Source of the DNA: Verrucomicrobiaceae bacterium UBA7681
GTDB taxonomy: Bacteria > Verrucomicrobiota > Verrucomicrobiia > Verrucomicrobiales > Verrucomicrobiaceae
Direction of reading: 5' to 3'
DNA length: 64,000 bases
NCBI GenBank assembly: GCA_002482965.1
Contig: DLGZ01000025.1
Span: 16,777-80,776 of the forward strand
Both the position numbers and the translations under genes were made by a program. Below the pieces are notes generated by a model. It was not told the DNA's origin. It saw only the letters and a program-made list of their open reading frames with translations, and searched no databases. Position 1 is the first letter of the stretch. Each line of letters opens with the position of its first letter. Below, piece by piece: positions 3,427-56,409 of the stretch.

Positions 3427-4068
3427 TCACTCCAGCACCTTGATCTTCAGATTGCGGTAATAGACGGGAGCCTGGGCTTTGCCGTGGAGGCCTTGGAGGC
3501 CGATGGGGCCGGTGCGGGCGTAGTCTTTGAGGGCTTTCTTGAATTTGTTGGGGGTGCCGTCGGGGTTTTTGCCGATTTCGGGCCAGTTGTCGAGGTTGGC
3601 GTTGATGACTTCTTCGCCGTTGAAGACGACGCTGATCATGGGGCCTTTGCAGGTGATGGTGAAGTGGTTCCACTCGCCGACGGGCTTGGCCATGCTCTTG
3701 CTGGGGGGCATGGCGTCATAGATGGCGGCGACCATGCCGTACTTGCTGCCGTCTGCGGAATCGTGGACCTGGATTTCGAGGGCGGAGAGCACGTCCTTGA
3801 TGTTGCCTGAGCGGATGAAAACGCCGCTGTTGGACTCCTTTTCGACTTTAAATTCGAGGTCGAGGATGAAGTCGCCGTAGGAATCCTTGGTCCAGAGGGT
3901 TTCGTGGTCCTTAGCGACGAGGACGCCGTCTTTGAGCTCCCACTTGCCGGGATCGACGGCGTTGGAAAGGTCGGCGGCGAAGAGGTCCTTCCAGCCGGTG
4001 GTATCGGGAGCATCGACGGCCAAAGAGAGGGAGGCGGTGGCGAAAAGCGCGAGGAGGGTGTGTTTCAT
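3427..4068 (-). CDS. DUF1080 (3-keto-disaccharide hydrolase-like, concanavalin-fold) secreted protein
   Basis: Start taken at the in-frame ATG 4068 (MKHTLLALFATASLSLA signal peptide). The 46-codon upstream extension in the track has no signal-peptide logic. Family-typical segments: W..KDGVL, GDF.L..EFK....NSGVF.R, EIQV.D, W N...I, and the ending YRNLKIKVLE. Confidence 0.85.
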   Translation of the reverse strand: MKHTLLALFATASLSLAVDAPDTTGWKDLFAADLSNAVDPGKWELKDGVLVAKDHETLWTKDSYGDFILDLEFKVEKESNSGVFIRSGNIKDVLSALEIQVHDSADGSKYGMVAAIYDAMPPSKSMAKPVGEWNHFTITCKGPMISVVFNGEEVINANLDNWPEIGKNPDGTPNKFKKALKDYARTGPIGLQGLHGKAQAPVYYRNLKIKVLE

Positions 4069-4302
4069 GGGGTGAGTGGTAACGTGAATGCGGCCGGGAA
4101 GATTCCAAGTTTTGGAAGGAAGATAGAGTGCGGTAAGGACCTCCATCCCAATGATGGATGCTGTTTTTGGGAGGTAAATCCGGGCCGAATCGACCTGCCT
4201 AAGCATCAGGGAAACGCGGAGCTGGATTTATAGGATTGCTTTTTTCTCCGGCTTGGCCAATTCTCCATAAAATAACCCGCCAGCATTCACAAAATCAGTT
4301 CC

Positions 4303-4662
4303 ATGAAATCCGCTCACTCCCTGGTCATTCTCTCGATTCTTGCCGCTCTTTCCCTCACCTCCTGTGGTCATGACTGGAGCTGGAGTGGTGGCGGCTACAA
4401 TCGCGTGCCCCCGGGTGGCACCTACTACGGCAGCAACTTTAACAGAGCACCGAGCTTTGGTGGGCATGGCGGTGGCTACGGCAATGGCTACAGCGTCTGG
4501 CCACAGCCGACGATCAACTACGGTGAAAACTTCACGTGGGAAGACGAGCCGACCAATGTGGGCAACAGCTGGGACCACGGTGGCTATTCTCTCCAGTCAA
4601 CGAGAACGAATCTAGTTACCCGACAAGAGTCGTACCAAACCGTCCGCACCTCCGGCAAATAG
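4303..4662 (+). CDS. small Gly/Tyr/Asn-rich lipoprotein
   Basis: ATG at 4303. Signal peptide plus lipobox (ALSLTS-C) at residues 15-21. 119 aa, low-complexity G/Y/N-rich mature part. The 3' end overlaps the convergent gene by 51 bp. Confidence 0.6.
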
Positions 4663-5976
4663 TCCCTTCCCATCAAAGGTGATGCTGGTCTGGAGCGGCA
4701 GAGTGCCTCCAGAAGGAAAAGATTTGATGGCGCCGCCGCTGGAGTTCCATAGGCGGACCTGATTGTCCCGGCCGGCGCTGAGGAGTTCGCCTTTGGGGCC
4801 GAAGGCGATGGCGAGGACGCCGTTGGGGAGCTTGCCATAGGAGCCTTGGGGGCGTGCTGGAGGATGGGCGTTGTTTTTGGTGACGGTGGGCCAGCCGTCT
4901 TTCGCATCCCACCAGATGAGGAGGCCGTCTTCACCGCCGCTGGCGAGCATTTTGCTGTCGCTGCGCCAAGCAAGGGCACGCACTGCGGCTTTGTGCTCGG
5001 AGAGGGAGAGGAGGATGCCGCCGCCGGTGGCGTCCCAGAGGTGGATGCCGCCAGCGCGATCTGAGCTGGCGAGTTTTTTGCCGTCGGGGCTGAAGGCGAG
5101 GGCGGTGATCCAGTCGGTGTGCTTGGTGAGCTTATGGCGGAGTTTGCCATCGGCGGTGCCGTAGATTTTAACGACTTTGCCGGAGCCGCCGAGGGCGACG
5201 AGTTGCTGATCGGGGCTGAGATCGGCGGCGAGCACGGCGTCGGTTTCGTCGCCGATGGTGGTGAGGCGTTTGCCGGTTTTGATATCAAAGAGGACGACGC
5301 TGCCGGACTGGACGGGCTTGCCACCGGCGACCACTAGGACGCGCCCGTCGAGGCTGAAGCGGATGACGTTGGGCTGGCCTTCGGGGAATGCGAGGGCGCC
5401 GATCTGCTGCTGCGTGGTGGCATCGAGCAGGCGCACGTGTTCATGACCAGCGACGGCGATGAGGGGTGCGCGCGGACTGGCGGCCATGGCGATGACGGGG
5501 AGCGGGCGGTTTAATGCAGGGGGTGTGAAAGCAGGCAGGGACTCGGGCATTGGTGGCGGGCCGTCGAGTTTGATGTCGGTGGTGGGCGTGAAGGTGGTGT
5601 CGCGCTCGGCTACAAGGGATTTGCTGGCGGAGGATTCGCGCAGGCCGCCTTGGATCCACTGGCGGATTAGCTCGATCTGCGGGGCGGGAATGGCGGCTTT
5701 TTTGGGCGGCATGCGCTCGGCATCATCTTCGGCGGTGATGGCTTGGAAGAGCAGGCTCTGGCTGGAACGACCGGCGATGACGGCTTTGTCGCCGCTGCCG
5801 CCTTTGAGGACGGCGGTGAAGTTGGCGAGGTTCAGGTCGGCCTTCTGTTCATCGTCGCCGTGGCATTTGAGGCAGTGCTCACGGAAGATGGGCTTGATGT
5901 GTTCGTCATAGGTGATGACGGCATCGGCGGCGAGTGCGGACGTGAGCAGGAATGGGAAAAGTAAAAGCGGACGCAT
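4612..5976 (-). CDS. exported c-type-cytochrome-motif (PSCyt1-like, CLKCH) / WD40 beta-propeller protein
   Basis: The track start at 5982 is TTG; I prefer the ATG at 5976 ([19 protein letters not shown] signal peptide). CxxCH motif CLKCH at 5860-5874. Repeated WD-like blades follow (e.g. [40 protein letters not shown]). Confidence 0.85.
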
Positions 5977-5978
5977 GA

Positions 5979-8174
5979 TCAATGATTGAAGATGAACTCC
6001 GTTGAATTGAGGAGGCTCCAGAATATGTCCTGGTAGGGCTTGCGGTCTTTGGTGTCACTGCCGACGAGTTCGAGGAGGGCTTTGAGTTCTTCGGGCTTGG
6101 GTTTGCGGCTGAGGGCGCGGAGGTAGAGGTCTTCGATGATCGTTTCAGGCGGTGTGCCGGCTTTGAGTTGTTTTTCGATGACCTTGCCGGAACCGACCTG
6201 GCTTTGGACGGTGTCGCCAGCGACCATGTGGAGGGTTTGTGAAAGGGTGGGCTCAAGCTTGGTGTCGCAGGCACAGACGCTGGCGCGTCCCGCGCGGCCA
6301 AAGGTTTCGAAAAAGGGATCGCCGGTATTCGCGTTGTTGGTGTCGCCGGGGGTTCGCGGGTAGTGCTGGATGGCCTTGGTGCCTTTGGGAAAATACACGA
6401 AGCCGCGTTGGCCATCAGTGGCTTCAACGATGGCATCGAGCAGGACATCGGCACGCAGGCGGCGGAGCTGGGAGCGTGAGAACTGGCGCGTGTCGTCGGC
6501 GTTGGTGGCGTTTGGCTGCGCGGAGAGCTGGTAGGTGCGCGAGGTGGCGATGTCGCGAATGAAGGCGCGCAGATTGAAGTTGGAGTCGCCAAGGTGCTGC
6601 GCGAGGGCGTCGAGCAGGGGGCCGTTGGTGGGCAGATTGCTCACGCGCATGTCGTCGAGCGGTTCCACGAGACCGCGACCCATAAAGTGGGACCAGATGC
6701 GGTTGGCGAGATTGCGGGTGAAGAGCTCGTTCTTTGGCGAGGTGAGCCATGCGGCGAGGGCCTGACGCGGATCTTTGCCTTTCGGCACGCTGCTTTCACC
6801 GCCGAGCACGGTGGCGGGCATGGGGCGTTCATCGACGAGGTGTTTGGCGGGTGCAGCGGACAAGTCGTTGAAGACATAGAACTCGCGAGGCTCGACGCCG
6901 AGCTTGCGCTGGATACCGGTGAAGAAGCTGACCCAGCCATAGTAGTCGTCCTGGGTCCAGCGGTCGAAGGGATGGTTGTGGCACTCGGCGCACTGGATGC
7001 GCACGCCGGTGAAGAGCTGGGAAAAATCGGCGGCCAGGTTCTTGGGGGTCACGCGCACATCATGCACGAGCATGGTGTAGAGATTGGCGGGGCCGCTGTT
7101 GATGTTGCTGCCGGTGCCGGTGATTTGATCGGCGACGAATTCGTTCAGCGGGCGGTTCTGCGCCATTTGATCGTGAATCCATTCGTAGTACACGTCGGCG
7201 GCTTTGATGTCCGTAGCAGTGGGGGCGTAGCCACCGCCTTTGAGGCGAAGCATTTCGGCCCAGAGATCGGTCCAGAGGTCGGTGAAGCCGTCGCTTTTCA
7301 GCAGGCGGTCGATGAGGGCGGTGCGCTTGTCCTTGTCGGTGTCCGCCATGAAGTCGTGATACTCCTTGGTGGTGGGGAGGGTACCGCTGAGGTCGATGAA
7401 GATGCGGCGGAGGAAGGTTTCGTCATCGCAGATTTCGGAGGGCAGGAGGCGCAGCTTTTGCAGGCGGTCGTGGATGATTTCGTCGATGTAGTTGTTCGCG
7501 ACGGGATGGGTCCATTGGTAGTTTTTGTCCTGCGGGAGGACGATGACTTCGGAGCCGATGGTGAAGCGGTTGAAGCGCGCGAAGACATGGGTGTCGCCAC
7601 GGCCGGTGGCTGAGACGAGGCCGTCTTTGTCGATCTTGGCGGTGGAGGGGTTGTTGGTGGCGAAGAGGGCGAGATCGGTGACATCGCGCTTGGTGCCGTC
7701 GGAGTAGCGGGCGGTGACGGTGGTCTTCTGCGTGCCTTTGCCGCCTTCGAAGACGATGCGGTCGGGGGCGAGGGTGATCTCGACGGGTTGCGGGACGGAT
7801 GCGGCATCGTCGGGTGTGCCGGCGGCGATCCATTTCAGCAGGGTCTGGTAGTATTGGGTATCGGGCTTGAAGAGTTCACCACCGGTGTGGGGGACTTTGC
7901 CGGTGGCTTTGAGGAGCATGAGGCTTTGCTCGGGGGCGGCGAGATTGACGCGACGGCCTACCATCTCCTGAGTGATACGGTAGTAGTCGCCTTTGGCATC
8001 GTAACCGAAGAGGGAGAGCATGAAGCCGTCCTTGCCGCGTGCGGAGCCGTGGCAGGTGCCCTGGTTGCATCCTGAGCGGAAGAGGATGGGCATGACATCG
8101 CGGCGGAAGCTGGGGGCTTCTTCTGCGCAGAGAGAGGCCGCGCACACTGAAAGAACAATCAAAGAGCGGAGCAT
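5979..8174 (-). CDS. exported Big_2 + DUF1549 + DUF1553 (PSCyt/PSD1-type) protein
   Basis: ATG at 8174. Signal peptide [19 protein letters not shown]. Order of segments: N-terminal CNQGTCHG box, an Ig-like Big_2-type segment (..[20 protein letters not shown]..), a DUF1549-like segment ([20 protein letters not shown]..), then DUF1553 with [12 protein letters not shown] (CAECH at 6978-6992). 731 aa. Confidence 0.88.
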
Positions 8175-10598
8175 TTAGCGGGATGAGCTGGAGGTTTGAA
8201 GAAGGGAGGGATCGACACGCAGGATGCCTTTGCCCATGCGCTGGCGGATTTGCTGACCGCGTTCGGTGACGGTGATTTCGCAGCTTAGTTCTTTGTATTG
8301 GCCGAGGAGGGATTCGTTGGAGGCGGAGATTTCGAAGATGAGCTGTTTGTCGCCGACTTTGAGTTTTGGTGCGTTGATGACGCTCACGCCTTTAGGCAGA
8401 CCGAGCAGGGTTGCCTGGGCTTCGCCTTCGAAGGGTTTTTTGTGTTCAATGTCCCAGACGACCTGGGCTTTTTCCCCACGACGGACGGCGGTGGGATTGC
8501 TCTTCAGGGCGATGTAGGGCTGGGCGATGGTGATGTTGATGAATGCGCTCGATGCGCGGATGCGACCCGCGCCGAGGTAATAGGAGCCGCCTGTCGTGGA
8601 GGCCGTCATGGCGAGGCGATAGGTGCCCGGCGCAGCCGAAGCGCTGGCGCTGAGGCGCAGGGTGCCTTCGTTTTTACCCGCAGGAATGGTGAGTGTGGGC
8701 TCTCCTTCGACACCGGGTGGCACCCAGTCGAACTGATGCTCGATGTCTTCATCAAAGCCGGGCTTGCGCGTGATTTTGACCGGGAGCGTGAGTTCACCGT
8801 TTTGCGATAGAGGGATGGACGGCTGCTCGACATCGATTTGATAAGGGGCGGGCTCGGTGACGGCGAAGGCGTAGTGATCGACGACAAAGGAATGCCATGC
8901 GTGACCGCCGCTGTGGCCGAGGAAGGAAAACGACTGCTGCGAGCGGCTGAGCAGCGGCGTGCCATCGGTAGTTTTGCAGGTGATGGAGATGAGCGCGGTC
9001 TGTGGCTTGGTGCCGGCGTCGGCGATGAACTGCACCGGCACCTGACGCTGACCGGCGAGCAGTCGCGGAGCGATCATGCGAACGCCTTGGGGCAGACCCT
9101 GCACGACAAGGTCGAGTTCGCCTTTGTAGCGACTGCCGGCGGCATCGATGAGGTTCACATTCACCGTCCAGCGGCCACCTTGCGGCACGGCAATGCTGGT
9201 GAGGCGCGGACATTCCACCATGTCGATGACACGCGCCTGGATGAAGGTGTTGATCTCATCTCGGGCGGGTTCGACCTCGATGCGGTAAACGGAAGTCGGA
9301 TCGCCGAGGCTGCGCATGTCGGTGATGTTGATGAGGTAATCGCCATCGGTTTTTGGTTCCCAAATGACAGCCGGGTCCATGAGTTCCTTGCGCTGAATCT
9401 GTCGCGACATGGCCCAGAGATCGCGATCAGGAAGCGTCGAGTCATCAGCGGTGATGTCATCTGTTTCGGCATCGGCTTTGCGGATCGTGAGGCGTGGATC
9501 GAGCGGTGTGCCGAACGACCGTGCAAAGACGCGCACCCGCCAGCGATCACCCGCTTTGACTTTGACCCGGAAGCTGTCGGCATCGTTTGCGGCTTCGATG
9601 CGGCCATTCAATGCCGCAGGGAGGGCGCTGACGGTGGTTTCATCCGCCTCTTTGGCTTCGAGCACGTTGGGGAACTCACTCACACGCATCATCAGCGGTG
9701 AAGGCATTTTGTCGTTGAAGGCGAAGTCGCCGGGTTGTGCGGGGAGCATGGCCTGGATGGCTTCATCGCCTTTTGGATCGCCGAGAAGCGTGGCCGCAAG
9801 CATTTCGCCTTTCATGCCACCGGCGGGATACACGGCGAGGGGGCGGTAATTTGAGCCGATGTGCGCGAGGTAGTAGCAGTTGCCGCCCGAGTTGAAGATG
9901 CGCTGTTTGACCTCGATACGGTATTCGCCATCGGCGGGCAGAATCGTGCTGAACACGGGGTCTTGCAGATGCATGGCGCTGTCGTCATTACGGGCGAGTT
10001 CTTTGCCGGTCGCGTCTAGAATGCGTGTGGTGAGGTCGAACTCGGACCCGGCGTAAAACTTCTCCGTGAGCCACACGGAATCGACCTCCACGGAAAGGTG
10101 CTCACCTTGGCGGCCGGTGACGCGATAGACATCGACGTCGCCGACTTGATTGGTGTCCATGCGACCGAGCACCGCGCTGTTCATGGGCACGGGCTGGTCT
10201 TCCTGCGCCTCTTTGACGATGGGAAAGCGCGTCACCGCGAAGGTGCTGAGCGTGGTCAACTCGGTGGCGGTGCGCAGTTTGAAGGGGTGCAGTCCGAGCG
10301 GGCAATCGGCGTCGATCTCAAGCTTCGCTAGCACGCTGTCATGGGTGAAACCGCCGTGCATCGTGCTGCGGGGCTGAGGCAGCGATGGCAGGCTTTTCAG
10401 TTCAATGCAGCGGATGCCGGGACGATAGAAGAGAAGCTCACGCGCTTCTTTGATGAAGGCACCTTCGATGGTGACTTCGACCGTGGTGCCGCGCTGGCCT
10501 GCGCGAGGCGTGACAAACTCGATATGATGTACCATCGGGCCCGCGAGCGCGGAGGTGAGCAGACATGCTGAACCTATGAGGGCGATGAAAAGTCGCAT
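8175..10598 (-). CDS. secreted 807-aa hypothetical protein with two PPC (pre-peptidase C-terminal)-like beta-sandwich segments
   Basis: ATG at 10598. Signal peptide MRLFIALIGSACLLTSALAG. Two segments fit the PPC pattern: GRMDTNQVGDVDVYRVTGRQGEHLSVEV..ILDATGKELARNDDS..DGEYRIEV, and GRIEAANDADSFRVKVKAGDRWRVRV..ADDS..DGDYLINITD..VYRIEVE. Stop TAA (8175-8177) directly abuts the next ATG. Confidence 0.8.
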   Translation of the reverse strand: MRLFIALIGSACLLTSALAGPMVHHIEFVTPRAGQRGTTVEVTIEGAFIKEARELLFYRPGIRCIELKSLPSLPQPRSTMHGGFTHDSVLAKLEIDADCPLGLHPFKLRTATELTTLSTFAVTRFPIVKEAQEDQPVPMNSAVLGRMDTNQVGDVDVYRVTGRQGEHLSVEVDSVWLTEKFYAGSEFDLTTRILDATGKELARNDDSAMHLQDPVFSTILPADGEYRIEVKQRIFNSGGNCYYLAHIGSNYRPLAVYPAGGMKGEMLAATLLGDPKGDEAIQAMLPAQPGDFAFNDKMPSPLMMRVSEFPNVLEAKEADETTVSALPAALNGRIEAANDADSFRVKVKAGDRWRVRVFARSFGTPLDPRLTIRKADAETDDITADDSTLPDRDLWAMSRQIQRKELMDPAVIWEPKTDGDYLINITDMRSLGDPTSVYRIEVEPARDEINTFIQARVIDMVECPRLTSIAVPQGGRWTVNVNLIDAAGSRYKGELDLVVQGLPQGVRMIAPRLLAGQRQVPVQFIADAGTKPQTALISITCKTTDGTPLLSRSQQSFSFLGHSGGHAWHSFVVDHYAFAVTEPAPYQIDVEQPSIPLSQNGELTLPVKITRKPGFDEDIEHQFDWVPPGVEGEPTLTIPAGKNEGTLRLSASASAAPGTYRLAMTASTTGGSYYLGAGRIRASSAFINITIAQPYIALKSNPTAVRRGEKAQVVWDIEHKKPFEGEAQATLLGLPKGVSVINAPKLKVGDKQLIFEISASNESLLGQYKELSCEITVTERGQQIRQRMGKGILRVDPSLLQTSSSSR

Positions 10599-10603
10599 GG
10601 CGG

Positions 10604-11926
10604 TTAGGAGATGATGCCCTTCACGACATTGCCGTCTTTCACGATCTCGATGGGGCGGGTGCCGCCGAAGGCCATGAGCTCTTCGTTGGAGTCGATGCCG
10701 AGCTGGCTGTAAACGGTGGCGAGGAAGTCTTCGAGTTTCACTTCATCGCGTGCGGGTTCAGCGGAGGTGGCGTCGGAGGCACCGTAGATCTGACCTCTCG
10801 TGATGCCGCCGCCAGCGAGGAGCATGGAGTACACTCGGGCCCAATGGTCGCGACCGTTGCTCATGTTTACTTTGGGTGTGCGGCCAAATTCAGTAGTGAC
10901 CATGACGAGAGTGCTGTCGAGCATGCCGCGCTGATCGAGATCCGTGATGAGGCCGCTGATGGCGTGGTCGAGCGCGGGCATGAATTCGGTGCAGGTGCTC
11001 TTGATGTCCACGTGCGAGTCCCAGGAGCCGTAGTTGACGCTGACGAAGCGGACGCCGGACTCGACGAGGCGGCGAGCGAGGAGGAGGCGCTCGCCGACGG
11101 CGGCGGGGGCTTTCTGTTTTAACTCGTAATTGCGGCCATAGAGATCGCGCATGGCGTCGTTTTCATCGGCGAGGGAGAAGGCTTTCCTTGCGGTATCGGA
11201 GGTGAGCAGTGAGTAGGCGCTCTTGTAGAAGTCATCCATCGTGTTGAGCTTGTCGACGTCGGCATCCAGTTTGCGGAGCTGGCCTTCGACGATGTCGCGT
11301 GCGGCTTTGCGGCGTTCGAACTGCTGCATGGAGACGCCATCGGGGATGCTGAAGTCGCGCACCTTGAACTCGCCTTTGGCGCCAGGGTCGGCGTTGAGCT
11401 GGAAGGGGCCGTACTTGCTGCTGAGGAAACCAGTGCCGCCTTCAAAGCCGCGCATGGCGGGAATGGCGACGTAGGGAGGCATGCCCTGGCGAATGCCCAT
11501 GAGATGGGAAACGACGCTGCCCATCTGCGGGTAGTCGATGACAGTGGTCGGCGTGTAGCCGGTGTAAAGGTGGTAGGTGGCCTGCTGGTGATCGGGGATT
11601 TTGCCGGTGACGGAGCGAACAATGGTGAGCTTGTCGGCGATCTTGGCGAGTCGGGTGAAGTTCTCGCTGAAGACCTCGCCGGTGTTGGTTTTAGCCACGC
11701 CAAAGCCGCCGCGATATTCCGTGGGCGCTTCGGGTTTCGGGTCCCAGGATTCCTGCTGGGCCATGCCGCCGGGGAGATGCAGATGGATGATGCTTTTGGC
11801 CTTGCCTTCTTTGAAGAATCCCGGCTCCACGGTGGCGCGGGCTTCGTGTTTGAGAAGATCGGCCATGCTGAGGCCGAGGGCGCTGCAGAAGCCGATGCGC
11901 ATGGCTTCGCGACGCTGGAGATTCAT
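10604..11926 (-). CDS. DUF1501 protein (sulfatase/alkaline-phosphatase-fold) with Tat-type signal
   Basis: Start chosen at ATG 11926 (MNLQRREAMRIGFCSALGL.., twin-Arg). An alternative ATG is at 11968. The track extension to 12265 is P/R/S-rich junk and overlaps the divergent SDR gene. Body matches DUF1501 hallmarks (..GGMAQQESWDPKPEAP.., ..VTTEFGRTPKVN..GRDHW..). Confidence 0.88.
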   Translation of the reverse strand: MNLQRREAMRIGFCSALGLSMADLLKHEARATVEPGFFKEGKAKSIIHLHLPGGMAQQESWDPKPEAPTEYRGGFGVAKTNTGEVFSENFTRLAKIADKLTIVRSVTGKIPDHQQATYHLYTGYTPTTVIDYPQMGSVVSHLMGIRQGMPPYVAIPAMRGFEGGTGFLSSKYGPFQLNADPGAKGEFKVRDFSIPDGVSMQQFERRKAARDIVEGQLRKLDADVDKLNTMDDFYKSAYSLLTSDTARKAFSLADENDAMRDLYGRNYELKQKAPAAVGERLLLARRLVESGVRFVSVNYGSWDSHVDIKSTCTEFMPALDHAISGLITDLDQRGMLDSTLVMVTTEFGRTPKVNMSNGRDHWARVYSMLLAGGGITRGQIYGASDATSAEPARDEVKLEDFLATVYSQLGIDSNEELMAFGGTRPIEIVKDGNVVKGIIS

Positions 11927-12107
11927 CTGGCGGAAGCCGGTGCAGCCGGAGGGGGCGGGGATTTTCATGTGGGGCGGCGAAAGGATTGCGGGGAAACGAG
12001 GATGTGAAGTTACTGAGTGAAAGTGGGTTTCCTTGCGGGACCCCGAGAACTCGGGGGGAGGCCGGACGTGGTCTTTGCATAAGCGGGCGGGATGACCATA
12101 GTGCGGA

Positions 12108-12863
12108 ATGAATTTGAATCTTGAAGGGCAGTCGGTCGCTGTGTTTGGAGCTGGGCGGGGCATTGGCCGGGCGATTGCAGATGGATTTGTCGCGGAGGGG
12201 TGTTCCGTGCGCGGGTTTGACCGAGAGAAGACGGCGGAGTTTATCGCGGCGGGGGATGTGGCCAATTATGAGGCGGTGAAGAGTTTTGCGGATGAGTTTG
12301 AGAGCGTGAAGCACGTGGTGTTTTGCGTAGGCATTGGGTCGGGGAAGTTTGGGTTTCCGTTTTGGAATCTGGAGCCGACCGACTGGGCACGGGTGCTGGA
12401 GGTGAATCTGATCGGCGCGGTGAATGTGGCGCATGCGTTTGCACCGAAGCTGATCGAGAGCGGTGGGGGGTCGATGCTGTTTTTGGTTTCCGTGGCGGGG
12501 CAGATGGGATCGCAGACGGATCCGCCGTACAGTGCTTCGAAGGCGGCGCTGATTAACTTTACGCAGTGCGCGGCGAAGGATCTGGGGCCGCATAATGTGC
12601 GGGTGAATGCGCTGGCGCCGGGGATGGTGAAGACGGAGCTGAACCAGAGCATCTGGGCGGCGGGGCAGAAGAAGCTGCCGGAGGAGAAGCGGCAGAGCTT
12701 TGATGACTGGGCTGCGGAGAAGATCAAGAAGGTGTCGCACCTAGGCCGCTGGCAGATGCCGGACGAGTATGCGGCGATGGCGACGTTTCTGGCGTCAAAT
12801 CATGCGAAGAATATTACCGGGCAGACGATCAATATTGATGGTGGGCAGGTGATGCATGCTTGA
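12108..12863 (+). CDS. SDR-family short-chain oxidoreductase
   Basis: ATG at 12108. Cofactor motif GAGRGIG, catalytic YSASK (YxxxK), NVRVNALAPG. 251 aa. Confidence 0.9.
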   Translation: MNLNLEGQSVAVFGAGRGIGRAIADGFVAEGCSVRGFDREKTAEFIAAGDVANYEAVKSFADEFESVKHVVFCVGIGSGKFGFPFWNLEPTDWARVLEVNLIGAVNVAHAFAPKLIESGGGSMLFLVSVAGQMGSQTDPPYSASKAALINFTQCAAKDLGPHNVRVNALAPGMVKTELNQSIWAAGQKKLPEEKRQSFDDWAAEKIKKVSHLGRWQMPDEYAAMATFLASNHAKNITGQTINIDGGQVMHA

Positions 12864-12892
12864 GGAGCGGAGTGCAAGGTGATGGCGGAGCG

Positions 12893-12912
12893 CCGCACAG
12901 AGGACTGTGCGG
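12893..12912. terminator. perfect 8-bp hairpin CCGCACAG-AGGA-CTGTGCGG in a convergent intergenic gap
   Basis: Read directly. Lies between the stop of the SDR gene (12863) and the stop of the minus-strand dehydrogenase (12999). No U-tract. Confidence 0.35.
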
Positions 12913-12998
12913 ACCACTTTGCTAGCGCTCATGCGACGCGCTGTGAATGGTTGGATGATTTTCCGAATTCGTGCTTTAAGAGAACTTGGAAGTTCGCT

Positions 12999-13871
12999 TT
13001 ACTCGTAGAGGCGGAAGAGGCCGCTGTGATCGAGGTCGCCGAGGTGTTTTTCGTGGACGAATTTTTCCCATTGGGCGAGGGAGTTTTTCAAGGTGGGGGA
13101 GTCGAGGCCGACGGAGTCGGCGAGCTGGGACATGAGGCGGACGTCTTTGAGCTGGAGGGTGGCGCGGCCACCGGGGGCGAAGTCGCGGCGGACCATGCGG
13201 TCGCCATGGAGATCGAGGATGCGGCTTTCGGCGAAGCCGCCGAGGAGGGCTTTCCGAACGAGGGCGGGATCGACGCCGGAGAGTTCGGCGAGGCGGAGGG
13301 CCTGGGCGACGGCATCAATGGTCTGGGCGACGATGAGCTGATTGGCGAGTTTGGTGACCTGGCCGCTGCCGACGGGGCCGAGGTGGGTGATGTTTTTGCC
13401 GACGGTCTGGAAGATGGGGAGGGCGCGCTGGAAATTTTCTTCGCTGCCGCCGGCCATGATAGTGAGGGTGGCGGCTTCGGCGCCGACCTGGCCGCCGGAG
13501 ACGGGGGCATCGACCCAGTTGACGCGTTGGGCCCATTGTTTGGTTTCGGGAACGCCGGTGGTGCCGAAGTCGATGATGAGGGCGTCCGGGTGCAGGCCTT
13601 CGATGAGGCCGCCGGGGCCGAAGACGATGGCTTCGACGACGTCGGTCATGGTGAGATTGATGCAAATGATGCCTGGGCCGATTTCGCGGGCGAGTTCGGG
13701 GAGGGTGGCGGCGCGGCGCATGCCGAGGGCGACGGCATCTTCTGCGGGGCCGGGGCTGCGATTCCAGACGACGACGTCGGCTCCGGCGGTGTGGAGGTGG
13801 CGTGCATTGGCGCGGCCCATGTTGCCGAGTCCGACGAATCCGATCTTGTGTCCTGCGAGTGGCTTGCTCAT
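12999..13871 (-). CDS. NAD(P)-dependent beta-hydroxyacid dehydrogenase (3-hydroxyisobutyrate dehydrogenase / GarR / LtnD family)
   Basis: ATG at 13871. N-terminal Rossmann motif IGFVGLGNMGRANARHL. Family-like core (..VDAPVSGG..GA..ATLTIMAGG..) and helical C-terminal domain. 290 aa. Confidence 0.88.
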   Translation of the reverse strand: MSKPLAGHKIGFVGLGNMGRANARHLHTAGADVVVWNRSPGPAEDAVALGMRRAATLPELAREIGPGIICINLTMTDVVEAIVFGPGGLIEGLHPDALIIDFGTTGVPETKQWAQRVNWVDAPVSGGQVGAEAATLTIMAGGSEENFQRALPIFQTVGKNITHLGPVGSGQVTKLANQLIVAQTIDAVAQALRLAELSGVDPALVRKALLGGFAESRILDLHGDRMVRRDFAPGGRATLQLKDVRLMSQLADSVGLDSPTLKNSLAQWEKFVHEKHLGDLDHSGLFRLYE

Positions 13872-13929
13872 GTCCGGGCGAACTCACATCAGGCGGTGCC
13901 TGATGGCAAACTCCTTCCCAACCTACTTC

Positions 13930-14898
13930 ATGAAAATCATCATCACCGGCGGCGGCGGCTTCCTTGGCTCACAGCTTGCGCAGAAACTTTTGGAACGCGG
14001 CACGTGGTGCGGCAAGGCGATCACGGAGATGGTGCTGCTGGATGCGTTTTTCCGCGGTGAGCCTACGGATGCGCGGGTGAAGCATGTGCAAGGTGACATT
14101 GGTGACCGGGCGACGGTGCTGGCAGCAACGGGGCCGAAGTTTGATGTGATTTTTCACCTGGCCTCGATGGTGAGCGGGGAGTGTGAGGAGAGGTTTGATG
14201 ATGCGATGCGGGTGAATCTGGAGGGCGGGCGCAATGTGTTTGAGGCGGCGCGTGCGGCGGAAGGCAAGCCGCGGGTGGTGTTTGCGAGCAGTGTGGCGGT
14301 TTATGGCGGGCTGGACATGTCGCAACTGATGTCTGACCTGACGAAGCAACTGCCGCAGACGACGTATGGGATGACGAAGGCGATGTGCGAGATGATGGTG
14401 AATGACCATACGCGCAAAGGGCACTTTGATGGACGCAGCGTGCGGCTCCCAACGGTGATCGTGAGGCCGGGCAAGCCGAATGCGGCGGCATCGAGCTGGG
14501 CGAGCGGGATGTTTCGTGAGCCGCTGAATGGTGAGGCGTGCATGCTGCCGATCCGGCGTGATCAACCGCATCCGATGACCGGGTATCGGACAGTGATTGA
14601 GTCGTTCATCGCGCTGAGTGAAGTGCCGGAGGAGATGCTGGGGAAGGATCGGGCGTATGTGCTGCCTGCGCATCGGGTGACGCCGCAGATTGCGGAGAAG
14701 GTGATTCAAGAAGTGGCGGCGGAGCGTGGGATCATTCTGGGGCCGATTGTGGATGCGTTTGATGCGCGGATTCAGGGCATCGTTGATAACTGGCCGCAGC
14801 AGGTGGATGGCGCGCGCTCTGAGGCGATTGGTCTGCCGAGACCGCCGGAGCTGAAAGTGATCGTGGAACAATATGTGGCGGACTTTGGAATGAAGTAG
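13930..14898 (+). CDS. NAD-dependent epimerase/dehydratase-fold SDR, D-erythronate dehydrogenase (DenD)-like
   Basis: Start at ATG 13930 (MKIIITGGGGFLGSQLAQKL). The track ORF from 13342 is an out-of-frame-looking extension antisense to the neighbouring gene. YGMTK (YxxxK) is present. RLPTVIVRPGKPNAAASSWASGMFREPLNG resembles the DenD-type signature as I remember it. Confidence 0.8.
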   Translation: MKIIITGGGGFLGSQLAQKLLERGTWCGKAITEMVLLDAFFRGEPTDARVKHVQGDIGDRATVLAATGPKFDVIFHLASMVSGECEERFDDAMRVNLEGGRNVFEAARAAEGKPRVVFASSVAVYGGLDMSQLMSDLTKQLPQTTYGMTKAMCEMMVNDHTRKGHFDGRSVRLPTVIVRPGKPNAAASSWASGMFREPLNGEACMLPIRRDQPHPMTGYRTVIESFIALSEVPEEMLGKDRAYVLPAHRVTPQIAEKVIQEVAAERGIILGPIVDAFDARIQGIVDNWPQQVDGARSEAIGLPRPPELKVIVEQYVADFGMK

Positions 14899-14935
14899 GC
14901 TTTGCCGTGACCGTGGAATGCGGTAGCCTCGCTGC

Positions 14936-15937
14936 ATGAGTGAGATACGACCCTTTGCGAACGCGCCCGAAATCCACCTCAACCCGAAGTTCGCTCTCAT
15001 TGGTGTTGGAGTGTTGTTTTTGCTGGTTGGCGTCTATTCCGGGATCTATCAGGTTCCGGCGGAATCGGTGGCGGTGGTGCAGCGTTTTGGTGGTTACTTG
15101 AAGACGGAAACCCCCGGGCTGCACTTCAAGCTGCCGTGGGGCATTGATCAGGTCACGGAGGTGGAGATTTTGCGTCAGCAGAAGCTGGAGTTTGGCTTTG
15201 GCACCCGGGGTGCGACCAACCCGTATCAGTATGCGGATCCTGGTGATCAGGAGGGCGAAAAAACGATGGTTACGGGCGATCTGAATACGGCAATGGTGGA
15301 ATGGGTGGTGCAGTACCACATCAGCGATCCAGTGGCGTATGTGTTTAATTTTCGCGAGCCGGTGCCGACGCTAAGAGACTTGTCTCAGGCGGTGATGCGA
15401 GAGGTGGTGGGTGATCGCACGGTGGATGAAGTACTGACCATTGGCCGACAGGAAATGGAGACCAAATGCGCGGAACGACTGCGTGAACTGGTGGCGGCGC
15501 TGAACATGGGCGTGCGGATTGATCAGATTCAGCTAGGGAACATCAATCCGCCTGATGATGTGAAGGCGAGTTTCAGTGACGTGAACCGTGCGAAGCAGGA
15601 GAAGGAGTCTTCGATCAATGCGGCGAGCGGGAATTACAATGAGATCATTCCGAAAGCGCGTGGCGAAGCGGAGCAGAAGCTCAAAGGGGCCGAAGGCTAT
15701 GCGGCCAAACGCATCAATGAGGCCGAAGGTGATGCGGCGCGGTTCAAGTCTGTGCTGGCTGAATACCTGAAGGCTCCGGAGGTGACCAAGAAACGTCTTT
15801 ATTTGGAAACGATGAGCGAGGTGCTGGCCCAGGTGCCGGGGAAAATCATCTTGGATGACAAGGCCTCCTCGTTTCTGCCGCTGATGAATCTTCGTCAGGC
15901 GACCCCACAAACCAACCCTTCTCCTGCCACACGATGA
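14936..15937 (+). CDS. hflK: FtsH protease modulator HflK (SPFH/band-7)
   Basis: ATG at 14936. One N-terminal TM helix, then an SPFH domain (VVQRFGGY..TPGLHFKLPWGIDQV). ATGA overlap with the downstream hflC. Confidence 0.9.
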   Translation: MSEIRPFANAPEIHLNPKFALIGVGVLFLLVGVYSGIYQVPAESVAVVQRFGGYLKTETPGLHFKLPWGIDQVTEVEILRQQKLEFGFGTRGATNPYQYADPGDQEGEKTMVTGDLNTAMVEWVVQYHISDPVAYVFNFREPVPTLRDLSQAVMREVVGDRTVDEVLTIGRQEMETKCAERLRELVAALNMGVRIDQIQLGNINPPDDVKASFSDVNRAKQEKESSINAASGNYNEIIPKARGEAEQKLKGAEGYAAKRINEAEGDAARFKSVLAEYLKAPEVTKKRLYLETMSEVLAQVPGKIILDDKASSFLPLMNLRQATPQTNPSPATR

Positions 15938-16986
15938 AATCCTCCCTCCTTTTGATAGTTGTCCTCGCGCTGGTCTTTGTGGCGAGCAATGGTTTGTACA
16001 CCGTGAGCGAGACGGAGCAGGTGGTGATCACCCAGTTCGGCAAGCCGGTAGGGGAGCCTATCCGTGACGCGGGTCTGCACTGGAAGACGCCTTTTGTGCA
16101 GACCATCAACCGCCTGGACAAACGGGTGCTGGAATGGGACGGGCCTTCGGCCAACATGACGACGAAGGACAAGGTCATCGTGGTGGTGGATGCGTTTGGC
16201 CGCTGGGAGATCAACGACCCGCTGGTGTTTTTCCGTCAGCTCACGGATGAGCGGCGCGCGCTGTCGCGGCTGGATGACATCCTGGCGAGCGAGACGCGCA
16301 TCGTCATCGCGAAGCATGATTTCATCGAAGCGGTGCGGACCACGAAGGACCGAAAAGCGGTGCGTGATGAGAGCAATGTGACCACGACGGGCAGCACGCC
16401 TTCGACTGCGGATACACGTCTGGGTGTGCTGCCGCCGATCACGTATGGTCGAGTCGAGCTTGAGGCTGAGATTCTGAAGAATGCCATCCCGAAGATTGAG
16501 GGGTACGGCATCCGGCTGCTGGATGTGCGCTTCAAACGGATCGACTACGATCCGACGGTGAGCAAGTCGATCCATCAGCGCATGATTTCTGAGCGTGAGC
16601 AGATTGCCAAGCTGCACCGCGCGGAAGGTGAAGGCGAGGCGGCGAAGATCAATGGGGAGCGTGAGCGTGATCTGGCGACGATTGAGTCCGAGGCGTACCG
16701 CAAGGTGCAGGAGATGGAAGGTACGGCGGATGCGAAGGCAACGGAGATTTATGCGAAGGCGTACAACCAGACGCCGGAGGCTGCGGAACTGTTTGATTTC
16801 CTCAAGACGATGGAGACGTACAAGATGCTGATCACTTCTGACACGACGATGATTTTCACGACGGACAGCGAGTTGTTCCGGTATCTGAAGTCGAGCAATC
16901 CGCAGGCGACGAAACCGGTGGCGGGAGCGACAGGGGAGTTCACGCCACTGCACAAGCTACCGACGCTGATGGAAGTGGGGCGGTGA
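15934..16986 (+). CDS. hflC: FtsH protease modulator HflC (SPFH/band-7)
   Basis: ATG at 15934 overlaps the hflK stop (15935-15937). N-terminal TM helix, SPFH domain and coiled-coil region (..RAEGEGEAAKINGERERDLA..). Confidence 0.9.
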   Translation: MKSSLLLIVVLALVFVASNGLYTVSETEQVVITQFGKPVGEPIRDAGLHWKTPFVQTINRLDKRVLEWDGPSANMTTKDKVIVVVDAFGRWEINDPLVFFRQLTDERRALSRLDDILASETRIVIAKHDFIEAVRTTKDRKAVRDESNVTTTGSTPSTADTRLGVLPPITYGRVELEAEILKNAIPKIEGYGIRLLDVRFKRIDYDPTVSKSIHQRMISEREQIAKLHRAEGEGEAAKINGERERDLATIESEAYRKVQEMEGTADAKATEIYAKAYNQTPEAAELFDFLKTMETYKMLITSDTTMIFTTDSELFRYLKSSNPQATKPVAGATGEFTPLHKLPTLMEVGR

Positions 16987-17117: not shown

Positions 17118-20100
17118 TCAGGAAACTGTGCGGCGGCGGCGCAGGAAGCTGAAGAGGCCCAGCATGAGAAGGAGGATGCGGGAGGGCTCGGGGACGACAA
17201 CGATGACGCCGTAGGTGGTGAAGGCGCTGGTGTCCCATGAAAGCCCGGGATCCAGCGACACGCTTGAGAGGTCCAAATTCGCCGTGGTAAAGCTGCCGGT
17301 GCCTGCGAGTGAGTCCAGCGTGCCCACTGTGGTCCAGTCGAGGAGTTTGAAGATGTTGCCAGCGTTAAGTGTGGCGCTGTTGTTGTTCACCTTGATCGTG
17401 CCGCCTGCGGTGGTGCCCAGATTGAAGGTGCCGTTGGTCAGCCTGACGCTGTCATAATCTCCGGACTGGTCCCAAATGGTGGTGTAGGCCGTGCCGGTGG
17501 CACCGCCGTGGGTGTTCAAATAGGTGTTGGCGTCGGTTGAGAAATCGAAGGAGGCGTCAACCTGCGAAGTAGAGGTGAGGCCGAGCTGAATCTGGCCACC
17601 ATTCTGGACGTCCACCGCTGTGCCAGCGGCTGTGAAGGTCAGGGTTTGATTGCTGGTGTCCGTGGCCCCCACGCCTGGAGCGAGAACGGCACCGCTGCTG
17701 ATGACGGTAGCGCCGGCGATGCTGCCTGAGCCTGAGAGTGTGCCGTCGATGCTTACCGTAACGATGCCGGAGCCGGCAAGAGCGCCGCTGGCGCCATCTC
17801 CCACCTGCAAGGTGCCTGCGGCCACGGTGGTGGTGCCAGAGTAGGTACTGGTCTGGTTGAGCACGAGGATGTTGGCGCCCAGTTTCTTGAGACCCACGCT
17901 GTTTGCGCCGCTGTTGGTGTCGGCGATGACACCGTCATAGGTGAAACTGCCACCGGTGGCGTTGGTGGTGTCGAGGCCAATGAATGAGCCGTCTGTGAAG
18001 CCGCCGGTGGGGGTGCCTAGCGACTTGATGACGTCCACATCCGATGCGGTGAATTCGCCGGTACCGCCGACGTTGAAGGCGGCAGTGGCACCGCTGCTGA
18101 CGACGATATTGGCGTCTGTCCAGCTTGCGGGGGTGTTGTTATAGAGTGCTGTCTCCACAAGGAACTGCAGGGTGCCGGCGGTGACCGTGGTGGTGCCGGT
18201 GTAAGAGTTCACGCCATCCATGTAAAGGGTGCCGGAGGTGGTCTTGCTGAAGGCAGTGCCGCCATTGAGTTCAGCGAGATTTTTCAAGGTGCCGGACTGA
18301 GCATTGAAGGCGATGGCATTGGTGGAAGCGCCGATGGATCTGCCGGTCATGTCCAGCAGACCGCCATCGAGAGTGATGGAGGCAATGCGGGTTCCTCCGC
18401 CGGTGCCGCTCACGATGTCTCCCTGAACGGTCAGAGTACCGCCGGTGATTCCGATGGAGGCGTTTGCAGTGCCGGTCGTGGCAATGGCCATGGTGACGGC
18501 GGTGGTGGCCAGAGTGACGTCACCCCCAGAGACATTGAGGGCGGTGGTCGTTGAACCGGTGCCGTTGGTGTTGCTGTTGCCCATGATGAGGGCCTGGCCG
18601 CTGCCGGAGCCGATGGTGACGGTGCCAGCTGTGACATTGATGATGGAACTCACCGCTCCGGTGTTGGAGTTGCTGGCGAGAGTGGCGGCCGTGCCCGTGC
18701 CGGAACCGATGGCGACGATGCCGCCGCCGAGGTTGATGACGTTCGTGTTGTTGCCAGAGGATGTCTTCGAACCCATGGTGAGATTGCCGGTGGTCAGGGT
18801 GCCTGTGTCGAAGGCAAAGAGGTTTTCTATCGGGCCGGTTCTGGTGGCCTGAGTGCCAATGGTCACCGCCCCGAAGAGCAGATCCGCCGTATGTCCGGTG
18901 ACATCGAAGGTGTTCCGATTGCCCGCAGGCAGCCCCACTCCAGTGACGCCGTTGATGGAAGCCATATTGAAGGCGGCGGCAGACACGCCGTCGGCAGCGC
19001 GAATGGTGACTGTTCCGTTTGAATTGAAGAAGGTGATGGAACCCAAATCGCGTCCGCCGGTACCGATGTTGACCGCATCAACGTTGATGACGTTGGTGGC
19101 AGTGCCGAGTTGCAGCGCGTTGATCTGGCCGAGGTTACCAGTGTAGGAGCCACCGCCGCCCACGGTCAGCGCGCTGGCCGTAATGGTGGTGTTCTGCGCG
19201 AGGATGAGAGTGCCGTATCCGGTGCTGTTGGTTCCGGAGGTGCTGCCGATCTGAAGAATGCCGCTGGTGGTGTTCAGGGAGACATCCATGGTGGACAGCG
19301 CACTGAAGTCGGCGGTGGAGATGTTGGTGTTCGAGTTGCCGACAAGGAAGGTCACGCCCGTGCCAGTGGTGTTGATGACACTGAGGGCGCCCAAACCTGA
19401 CGCGGTGAAAAGGGTCGTGGAATTAGCCGCCCCACTGCCCAAGGTCACCGTGCCGCCAACTGTGAGGGTCTCCCCGGCACCGATGAGAATCTGATTGGTT
19501 TCTGCCGCTGTGTTCGTCTGCACGAGCAGGTTTCCGGCGAAGGTGGCGCTGGCAGTGGAGAGATCGAGCGTGCCTGCCGTGGAGGTGGAATTGGCAGTGC
19601 CGAAGTTCAACGCCCCCCCGAGGCTCTGGTCTGCGGTGAAGCGCAGGATACCGTCGTTGATGCTGGTAGCACCCGAATACGAACCGGGGCCACTGATGAC
19701 CCAGGTGTTCGTGTCCAACTTGATCAAGGTCAGTACGCCAAGGCCGTATTCATCGAGGCCACCCAGGGTGTTGTCCAGCAGAGGGTCGGAGAGTCCCCTC
19801 AGGGTGAGAGTTTTGTTGCCTGCGGTTTCAAACTGAACTCCGCCGAGCACCAGCGCGCCGGTGCCTGAAGAGTCCAGGGTGAGAGCACCGGTGGTGCCCT
19901 GCATGCCGATGGTGCGATCACTGATGCTGCCGCTGCCGGTGTAGATGAGCGTGGTGGCCACGGTGGAGAGACCCACGTGAATGACGCCGTCCTGCGCAGT
20001 GGCGGAACTGCCCAGCGCGCTGGCACCGCCGCCCACGCTGGTGATGGAGTTGAAGCTGAGAGTGCCAGCCTGAACTTCGACAGGACCAGCGAAAGTGCTC

Positions 20101-31385: not shown

Positions 31386-31441
31386 GCACGTAATGAAATA
31401 GTTGGGATTGGTCTTTCCATGACGGCAGGATGCACCGCACA

Positions 31442-31560
31442 TATGATCAGACAGGTTGTGGTAGAGTGATCAGTCTGAGTGATCTGCATTCTTTGGAACA
31501 AGACCAAAGTGATCCTTAGAACAACTCTTGGCCTATGTCTTAGCCGCTAAGAATTTAGTC
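31442..31560 (-). promoter_or_regulatory. AT-rich putative promoter/operator region upstream of the 4755-aa gene
   Basis: Marked GC drop versus the flanks. Four TGATC motifs (GATC at 31445, 31468, 31481, 31511), three of them as AGTGATC. Perfect 15-bp palindrome TCTTAGC-C-GCTAAGA at 31538-31552. Nearby TTAGTCT/TTAGACT direct repeats. Confidence 0.45.
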
Positions 31561-54854: not shown

Positions 54855-56372
<1,518 letters not shown>

Positions 56373-56409
56373 GGAGTCTGCGCCGTCATTTCTCAGTCAC
56401 CCAATTTTT

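Follow-up and report, generated by a model that had tools for sequence, protein, structure and literature searches.

A conserved four-gene DUF1501/planctomycete-cytochrome operon of Verrucomicrobiaceae bacterium UBA7681 and its possible role as a periplasmic haem-containing metalloenzyme complex

We analysed a 64,000-nucleotide stretch of the genome of Verrucomicrobiaceae bacterium UBA7681 (GenBank assembly GCA_002482965.1, contig DLGZ01000025.1, positions 16,777 to 80,776 of the forward strand; the whole stretch is called the window here), in which four minus-strand genes, G1 to G4, form a compact operon. The operon is almost certainly the ortholog of a gene cluster that has been known since 2012 from bacteria of the Planctomycetes-Verrucomicrobia-Chlamydiae (PVC) group. 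The best explanation for its function is a periplasmic, haem-wired metalloenzyme complex with a sulfatase-fold subunit. This explanation is tentative, and as worded here our confidence in it stays a little short of even. Among PVC genomes such a cluster is nothing unusual, and it has been published before.

Kamneva et al. described the "most complex gene clusters" around DUF1501 as four genes in this same order: a DUF1501 protein, sometimes with a twin-arginine motif; a protein with a signal peptide and a weak PPC (pre-peptidase C-terminal) domain; a PSCyt1/Big_2/PSCyt2/PSD1 protein; and a PSCyt1/WD40 protein (PMC3542564). Verrucomicrobium spinosum is among the PVC species in which they reported the cluster (PMC3542564). 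The features of all four genes and their order are found in the window, with PSCyt1 at the N-terminus of G3 weakly supported. The published cluster and the window operon are alike in the four domain architectures, the gene order, the putative twin-arginine translocation (Tat) motif of the DUF1501 protein, the three predicted signal peptides, and the occurrence in both Verrucomicrobia and Planctomycetes. Nothing essential differs; the N-terminus of the window G3 has C-X4-CH instead of CxxCH. Since the cluster was published in 2012, the operon is a re-discovery and not a new system. The original prediction, made from the sequence of the window alone, had presented a DUF1501 pair "extended by two further partners" as a novelty, and this part of it falls, because the identical four-gene order was given by Kamneva et al. 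(PMC3542564). Its statement that these families have no assigned function agrees with the full-text literature to 2026, in which we found descriptive genomics only and no functional study of DUF1501, DUF1549, DUF1553 or PSCyt.

Few protein families have expanded in Planctomycetes and Verrucomicrobia as much as DUF1501, DUF1549 (PSCyt2) and DUF1553 (PSD1). Neither the naming of these families in 2004 nor the description of the cluster in 2012 has been followed by the assignment of a function. Of all its members, the four-gene form is conserved best, at 46–70% identity between the phyla, and, being self-contained, it is well suited as a starting point for genetics and biochemistry. If its haem sites are real and are coupled to a metal centre in DUF1501, they would provide a mechanism for many "hypothetical" periplasmic proteins of abundant polysaccharide degraders.

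The operon and its four products

All four genes lie on the minus strand. G1 (10604..11926) encodes a DUF1501 protein of 440 residues, G2 (8175..10598) an all-β protein of 807 residues with a PPC domain, G3 (5979..8174) a C-X4-CH/Big_2/PSCyt2 (DUF1549)/PSD1 (DUF1553) protein of 731 residues, and G4 (4612..5976) a PSCyt1/WD40 protein of 454 residues. The four proteins were read from open reading frames (ORFs) and assigned with Pfam, and AlphaFold2 (AF2) models were made for G2 and G3. In the window sequence, the junctions read TAA-ccgcc-ATG between G1 and G2 (5 nt), TAAATG between G2 and G3 (0 nt), and TGA-tc-ATG between G3 and G4 (2 nt). The ORFs and the tight packing are as the original prediction had described them. 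Its domain assignments also hold in hidden Markov model scans, with Big_2 recovered through the PDB and Foldseek. For G1 the gene caller chose an upstream ATG at 11968, which gives a protein of 454 residues; the twin arginines are kept either way. Export leaders were read by eye from the sequence, and all four products have one, predicted to be Tat-type for G1 and Sec-type for G2, G3 and G4.

G1 matches DUF1501 in Pfam with an E value of 3e-104. Its leader reads MNLQRREAMRIGFCSALGLSMADLLKHEARA/T, with the cleavage mark before T. The Tat-like motif QRREAMR departs from the S/T-R-R-x-F-L-K consensus at the F-L positions and comes with a moderately hydrophobic stretch and an ARA site. The codons of the twin arginines R5 and R6 are at 11909..11914 on the minus strand, and neither residue varies among 66 diverse DUF1501 proteins or among the cross-phylum orthologs. 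G1 keeps every polar residue that is invariant in the DUF1501 alignment: D62, R104, H113, D303, H305, E346, R349, D360, and H361 show no or hardly any variation. Most of them belong to three polar motifs, WD303-S-H305, E346-F-G-R349, and R359-D-H361 (10844..11020, minus strand), which are conserved in 61–66 of the 66 proteins per column and are candidate metal ligands.

When the DUF1501 profile was compared with the PDB, the top of the list held only S1 sulfatases and LtaS, at E values of 0.02–2. The matches always cover the strand that ends in EFGR, which is aligned to the sulfatase DHG, and in these weak alignments E346 of G1 falls on the metal-binding Asp of the sulfatases. Two canonical sulfatases encoded in the window align to G1 in the same register, with EFGR on DHG or DNG, and the next β-hairpin aligns too. 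A sub-threshold Pfam match to Phosphodiest lies at this same region. A single-sequence search of the PDB with G1 gave no match. The profile alignments suggest, weakly but consistently, that G1 belongs to the alkaline-phosphatase/sulfatase superfamily. It would have the catalytic fold in common with the S1 sulfatases, NPP, and LtaS over the C-terminal half, aligned in one register. It differs from the S1 sulfatases in having another invariant set (D62, H113, D303, H305, E346, D360, H361) and a Tat-type leader. The C/S-x-P-x-R (formylglycine, CxPxR) motif is absent from the G1 sequence, and at the corresponding stretch DUF1501 has R104-S-x-x-x-x-x-x-x-H113. On this nucleophile motif, a formylglycine-dependent S1 sulfatase was rejected as an identity for G1.

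G4 consists of two domains, PSCyt1 (residues 20–118, Pfam E 4e-16) and WD40 (about residues 160–450, E 6e-31), behind a Sec-type leader ending in LTSALA/AD. The haem-binding motif C35-L-K-C38-H39 is encoded at 5860..5874 on the minus strand and is invariant in the orthologs. The candidate distal ligand is Met89 in the sequence RMPP (5710-5712, minus strand); R-M89-P is likewise invariant and aligns to the RMP of FoxE. A search of the PDB with the PSCyt1 profile returned the di-haem cytochrome FoxE (5MAB) with an E value of 2.8e-9, followed by weaker matches to CcoP and the c-552 cytochromes. The CxxCH and RMP of G4 align to both haem domains of FoxE. This match, in which CxxCH and Met are both kept, shows that PSCyt1 has a genuine class-I-type cytochrome c fold. 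G4 can be described as a real class-I-like c-type cytochrome domain on a WD40 propeller, with its haem predicted from the sequence. For the propeller, we found no d1-type or PQQ (pyrroloquinoline quinone)-type family among the best 25 of 43 Pfam matches; the families listed are of the WD40 kind.

G3 contains PSCyt2/DUF1549 (Pfam E 1e-47) and PSD1/DUF1553 (E 1e-42) behind a Sec-type leader ending in AASLCA/EE. A Sec leader is required on haem-motif proteins for the maturation of c-type cytochromes. The Ig-like Big_2 domain (residues 130–212; 7539..7787, minus strand) is under the Pfam cut-off. It matches the Big_2 repeats of a teneurin-like protein in the PDB with E values down to 6e-7, and in Foldseek it matches the Big domains of LigA and LigB. 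The domain list in the original prediction was correct for G3 as far as it went; it did not include an additional conserved N-terminal domain (residues 22–124) with an invariant C-X4-CH. This haem-type motif, C36-N-Q-G-T-C41-H42 (8049..8069, minus strand), is invariant in 88 homologues and also between the two phyla. Its wider context is G-C-N-x-G-x-C-H-G, with a conserved V-P-H-T-G-G downstream. Pfam makes no call of PSCyt1 at this N-terminus. The second motif, C395-A-E-C398-H399 (6978..6992, minus strand), is a CxxCH within PSCyt2. All three haem-type motifs of the operon, CxxCH in G4 and C-X4-CH and CxxCH in G3, are invariant across both phyla.

On the whole, the AF2 model of G3 is confident, with a pLDDT (predicted local distance difference test) of 82.8 and a pTM (predicted template modelling score) of 0.85. 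The confidence is low precisely at the two haem-type motifs, as expected because the cofactor is missing from the model. Single-sequence searches, profile searches, and a Foldseek search with the whole model all recovered Big_2 as the only relative of G3 in the PDB, so the helical PSCyt2-PSD1 body is without a solved relative. At the extreme C-terminus of G3 (5979-5999), position 726, F727, and N730 are invariant in the 88 homologues, and the terminal H731 is nearly so. That this conserved free histidine could reach the metal site of a partner is pure speculation.

The sole Pfam match in G2 is the PPC domain (residues 154–231, E 9e-8; 9906..10139, minus strand), which also has a fold match to the collagen-binding domain of ColG. 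The leader is Sec-type and ends in LLTSALA/GP. The PPC domain has the invariant acidic residues D156, E171, E186, D188, D205, D206, and D213, and we infer that such clusters in the PPC-like domains of G2 may be Ca2+ sites. The very confident AF2 model (pLDDT 90.4, pTM 0.85) has strands only, arranged in about eight β-sandwich domains. G2 is thus modelled as a rigid chain of about eight β-sandwich domains with conserved acidic clusters. Foldseek returned arrays of immunoglobulin (Ig), macroglobulin (MG), and PPC domains at template modelling (TM) scores of 0.17 or below: α-2-macroglobulin, complement C3, ciliary central-pair proteins, and the collagen-binding domain of ColG. It found no global structural analogue, and a single-sequence search of the PDB gave nothing above chance. 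An α-2-macroglobulin/C3-like protein was rejected, as the likeness to MG and Ig domains holds per domain only and G2 is without the CGEQ motif and without the helical domain. Homologues of G2 are named "serine protease" in NCBI and UniRef. We found no peptidase family in G2 in Pfam or NCBIfam, the latter being otherwise uninformative, and the model is purely β-sandwich; the name is an annotation artefact that arises from the accessory PPC domain.

Conservation, gene order, and gene fusions

G2 is a marker gene of the four-gene cluster. Its homologues fall into 686 clusters, and those listed are all full-length, with 46–92% identity. A scan of species-representative genomes with G2 as the marker gave 27 loci, mostly from Prosthecobacter and other Verrucomicrobiaceae, plus one of Opitutus type. 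In every Verrucomicrobial locus with sufficient flanking sequence (19 of 19), the order is G1-G2-G3-G4. The remaining 8 of the 27 are cut by a contig end or are fragmentary, and no deviating order was seen among the 27. Three distant homologues of G2, located by exact sequence and coming from Pirellulales and Planctomycetaceae (as named by NCBI) and one Planctomycete-type JGI metagenome contig, have the same four-gene order among wholly different neighbours. The co-conservation on which the original prediction depended is therefore borne out across Verrucomicrobia and Planctomycetes, with unrelated flanks.

Between the window and the Planctomycete orthologs, the identity is 62–70% for G1, 46–60% for G2, 61–66% for G3, and 57–64% for G4. 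A search of 1.84 billion representative proteins yielded 16,431 DUF1501 representatives, of which the closest full-length paralogue of G1 is 47% identical. That G1 is closer to its orthologs in another phylum than to its nearest paralogue indicates a distinct orthologous module under strong constraint. Elsewhere in the window there are no paralogues of G1 to G4.

The spacing of 5, 0, and 2 nt is kept in close relatives such as loci L001, L006-L008, L013, and L019. In several other relatives, G2 and G3 are about 1 kb apart, and L003 has a PD-(D/E)XK gene (PDDEXK_3, GxxExxY-like; 10483-11274 of that locus) at this place. Some relatives have 4.3–4.9 kb between G3 and G4, which in L015 holds a gene for a 1420-residue NHL-repeat protein with a signal peptide (12653-16915 of that locus). 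Co-translation and stoichiometric assembly had been predicted from the spacing: the spacing is indeed tight here, but with a PD-(D/E)XK or NHL-repeat gene inserted in relatives, tight coupling as a requirement does not stand.

One Prosthecobacter lineage (L014, L015, and L021) is 88–96% identical to the window in G1, G3, and G4 and 68–70% identical in G2. Most of the G2 divergence is in the N-terminal half, where blocks of 40 residues are 38–68% identical. This points to quicker evolution, or to replacement, of the scaffold gene alone.

A natural fusion was found in P0212, a protein of 1193 residues in which an ortholog of G4 (56% identity) is joined to an ortholog of G3 (66%) that has no leader, and whose gene adjoins a G2 gene. 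The domains of the fusion stand in the opposite order to the genes, and a read-through artefact was rejected for this reason. A search started from P0212 added about 40 clusters of proteins of 1170–1970 residues that have PSCyt1-WD40-PSCyt2-PSD1 in one chain. The source names, where given, are Prosthecobacter, Verrucomicrobiales, Pirellulales, Planctomycetales, Planctomycetaceae, and Thermoguttaceae. This repeated joining of G4-like and G3-like modules is the sole sign of a physical assembly of the products, and an indirect one. A "eukaryotic" gene model that also carries DUF1501 is probably a merged bacterial contaminant and was given no weight.

Three loci are incomplete. L026 (CAVYKL010000005.1) has fragmentary matches only, to residues 1–237 of G1, 196–421 of G2, and 249–516 of G3, and may be a decayed copy of the cluster or a poor assembly. 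L032 and L033 are Logan contigs of 53,388 bp and 5,842 bp, from independent assemblies of two read sets, with the exact G2 of the window. Both end 1218 nt into G3, and this shared end suggests an assembly break at a sequence common to paralogues.

Comparison with known systems

The DUF1501 and PSCyt2-PSD1 core is shared with the two-gene pairs of PSCyt/PSD1 and DUF1501, which are expanded in Planctomycetes and Verrucomicrobia and also occur on megaplasmids of marine Alteromonadaceae. These pairs differ from the window operon in that the partner precedes DUF1501, G2 is missing, carbohydrate-binding module (CBM) domains are often present, and the genes lie beside those of carbohydrate-active enzymes (CAZymes). 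On megaplasmids of Catenovulum and Saccharobesus, the pairs adjoin GH115, GH98, GH88, pectate lyase, and TonB-receptor genes, as well as extra cytochrome c and cytochrome b genes. This context, in degraders of algal polysaccharides, fits a redox-assisted processing of complex substrates.

Operons of DUF1800 and DUF1501 occur in Proteobacteria (PMC5122149). They likewise pair a DUF1501 protein with a Tat signal and a helical partner; the PSCyt haem motifs, a WD40 protein, and G2 are not reported there (PMC5122149). In the G3-like homologue P0422, DUF1800 (PF08811) scores over the PSD1 region with an E value of 9e-6 and 25.5 bits, against a cut-off of 26.1, and G3 itself has no DUF1800 match in Pfam at E ≤ 10. 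The score in P0422 and the existence of the DUF1800-DUF1501 operons suggest one ancient enzyme-partner pair.

For G4, the nearest parallel in arrangement is the foxEYZ system of phototrophic Fe(II) oxidisers, in which the haem-loaded periplasmic cytochrome FoxE partners a periplasmic β-propeller, FoxY (PMC10654088). G4 differs in having one haem domain, fused to a propeller of WD40 type and not of PQQ type. There is also no FoxZ and no evidence of iron oxidation. Cytochrome cd1 nitrite reductase and the quinohaemoprotein dehydrogenases likewise combine an exported c-type cytochrome with a β-propeller, and this resemblance to G4 is architectural only.

Proposed mechanism and alternatives

We propose that the four genes would form one transcription unit, a PVC-type DUF1501/planctomycete-cytochrome module in its "complex four-gene" form, and that the products may act together in the periplasm. 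Such joint action with haem is fairly probable. G1 would be folded and loaded with metal in the cytoplasm, exported through Tat, and serve as the catalytic subunit. G3 may be the obligate helical partner of G1 and the PVC counterpart of the Proteobacterial DUF1800. The haem of G4 and two haems of G3 could conduct electrons, as a short wire, to the metal site of G1 or the substrate, or away from it; electron transfer to the G1 site itself is doubtful. The WD40, Big_2, and G2 domains would keep the complex together and attach it to a substrate that is polymeric or associated with the envelope. The original prediction had foreseen such a division of roles among a hydrolase-fold subunit, haem-motif subunits, and a β-sandwich scaffold, and it fits the evidence. 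Rather than plain hydrolysis, we favour a reaction in which redox chemistry assists in converting an ester or a glycan. A bolder form of the proposal is a periplasmic oxidoreductase of a new kind, in which a three-haem wire (the FoxE-like His/Met site of G4 with C-X4-CH and CxxCH of G3) leads to a sulfatase-fold metal centre. We regard it as unlikely. If it were true, DUF1501 would be the first redox-coupled member of its superfamily, and this single-copy, highly conserved module would be the housekeeping prototype of hundreds of PVC DUF1501/PSCyt pairs.

Several observations weigh against the haem-wired metalloenzyme complex. The sulfatase alignments, including those to the two window sulfatases made to map the nucleophile of G1, are limited to the C-terminal half, have hhalign probabilities of 4–18%, and did not yield its position. 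At positions 56, 57, and 108, the G1 clade has Ala, Gln, and Gly, against the family majority of Ser56, His57, and His108. The A-Q (56–57) and G (108) signature is kept across both phyla and could mean that the activity is altered or lost. We also know of no redox enzyme in the alkaline-phosphatase superfamily. The haem sites of PSCyt1, PSCyt2, and the C-X4-CH domain are predicted ones. The N-terminal domain of G3 is colinear with PSCyt1 but weakly so (hhalign probability 8%), and it has no match in the PDB. Foreign genes within the operon of relatives imply that tight coupling is not obligatory, and G2 has diverged faster than its neighbours in one lineage. No regulatory element and no neighbouring gene points to a substrate.

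The main alternative is a non-redox scavenging of nutrients, in which G1 would be nothing more than a phospho- or sulfo-esterase like PhoD, PhoX, or NPP, exported by Tat, G2 to G4 would be substrate-binding or chaperone-like accessory proteins, and the Cys-x-x-Cys-His motifs would be structural, as disulfides or metal sites. To our knowledge, the alkaline-phosphatase superfamily is composed entirely of hydrolases, transferases, and mutases, and a fold link of G1 to it is suggested here. Tat export is also typical of PhoD and PhoX. The paralogous pairs are located in CAZyme islands, and carbohydrate-binding modules occur on paralogous PSCyt proteins (PMC5615132, PMC3542564). The haem evidence speaks against scavenging: the homology of PSCyt1 to a cytochrome solved with its haem extends to CxxCH and the Met ligand, none of the three haem-type motifs varies between the two phyla, and extra cytochrome c and b genes adjoin the paralogous pairs. 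On balance, we consider plain scavenging rather unlikely. It is less likely still that the genes are co-transcribed for one pathway or substrate and that their products work separately, as soluble proteins of the periplasm with no stoichiometric complex. The tolerance of foreign genes of about 1 to 4.9 kb at the G2/G3 and G3/G4 junctions would fit such an arrangement, as would the deviating evolutionary rate of G2; the repeated fusion of G4-like and G3-like modules and the strict order across phyla despite unrelated flanks argue against it.

Two further explanations leave the enzyme complex aside. Kamneva et al. speculated on electron transport and on a tie to internal membranes, with which the presence of the cluster correlates at 0.852 (PMC3542564). 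A structural role in the PVC cell plan, with the WD40 and β-sandwich proteins as membrane-associated architecture, was first suggested there and could be read from this correlation, but its authors caution that it may mirror phylogeny (PMC3542564). In the window, all four products appear to be exported, and we read no membrane anchor in their sequences. The cluster is also found in Opitutus-type and other bins, and the conservation of catalytic-type residues and haem motifs favours chemistry over architecture. We therefore regard a cell-plan role as improbable. That G2 is a secreted serine protease and the operon a protease system is hardly credible. The database names and the PPC domain, a type seen in secreted peptidases, would fit a protease. 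Against this, Pfam and NCBIfam find no peptidase domain in G2, the AF2 model contains β-sandwiches only, its fold matches are Ig/MG/PPC arrays, and the name itself traces to the accessory PPC domain.

Flanking genes and other features of the window

The operon is bounded upstream by a divergent gene of the short-chain dehydrogenase/reductase (SDR) family (12108..12863, plus strand) and downstream by a convergent small ORF of 119 residues (4303..4662, plus strand) that shares 51 nt with the 3' end of G4. With these two boundaries, the unit is exactly four genes. The small ORF has a lipoprotein-like leader (ending in LSLTSC) and a body rich in Gly, Tyr, and Trp, and a Pfam search with it gave no match. 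The divergent intergenic stretch between G1 and the SDR gene (11927..12107) is the presumed promoter region. We found no sigma-70-like consensus in it and no minus-strand terminator pattern for the operon, and an Rfam scan of the operon and its surroundings showed neither a riboswitch nor any other element.

Further downstream and on the same strand as the operon lies a DUF1080/3-keto-disaccharide hydrolase gene (3427-4206, minus strand), whose family is also expanded in PVC genomes. The SDR, DUF1080/3-keto-disaccharide hydrolase, and ABC-F flanks were considered as parts of the system and rejected. They are syntenic in close relatives only, and for this reason the flanking genes are not counted in the module.

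About 37 kb of the window is taken up by two giant tandem ORFs on the minus strand, at 17118-31442 (4774 residues) and 31785-54629 (7614 residues). The PATR (passenger-associated transport) repeats present in both suggest very large surface proteins of an autotransporter-like kind. The two S1 sulfatase genes of the window are adjacent, at 54855-56372 and 56308-57882 on the plus strand, with Pfam Sulfatase E values of 1e-47 and 1e-52 and an ORF overlap of about 65 nt. The GC skew of the plus strand is strongly positive nearly throughout the window (0.04–0.29), yet the minus strand carries most of the long genes. The skew reverses only at 54–56 kb, and the sulfatase gene region is the only stretch of negative GC skew, with a lower G+C content (0.563).

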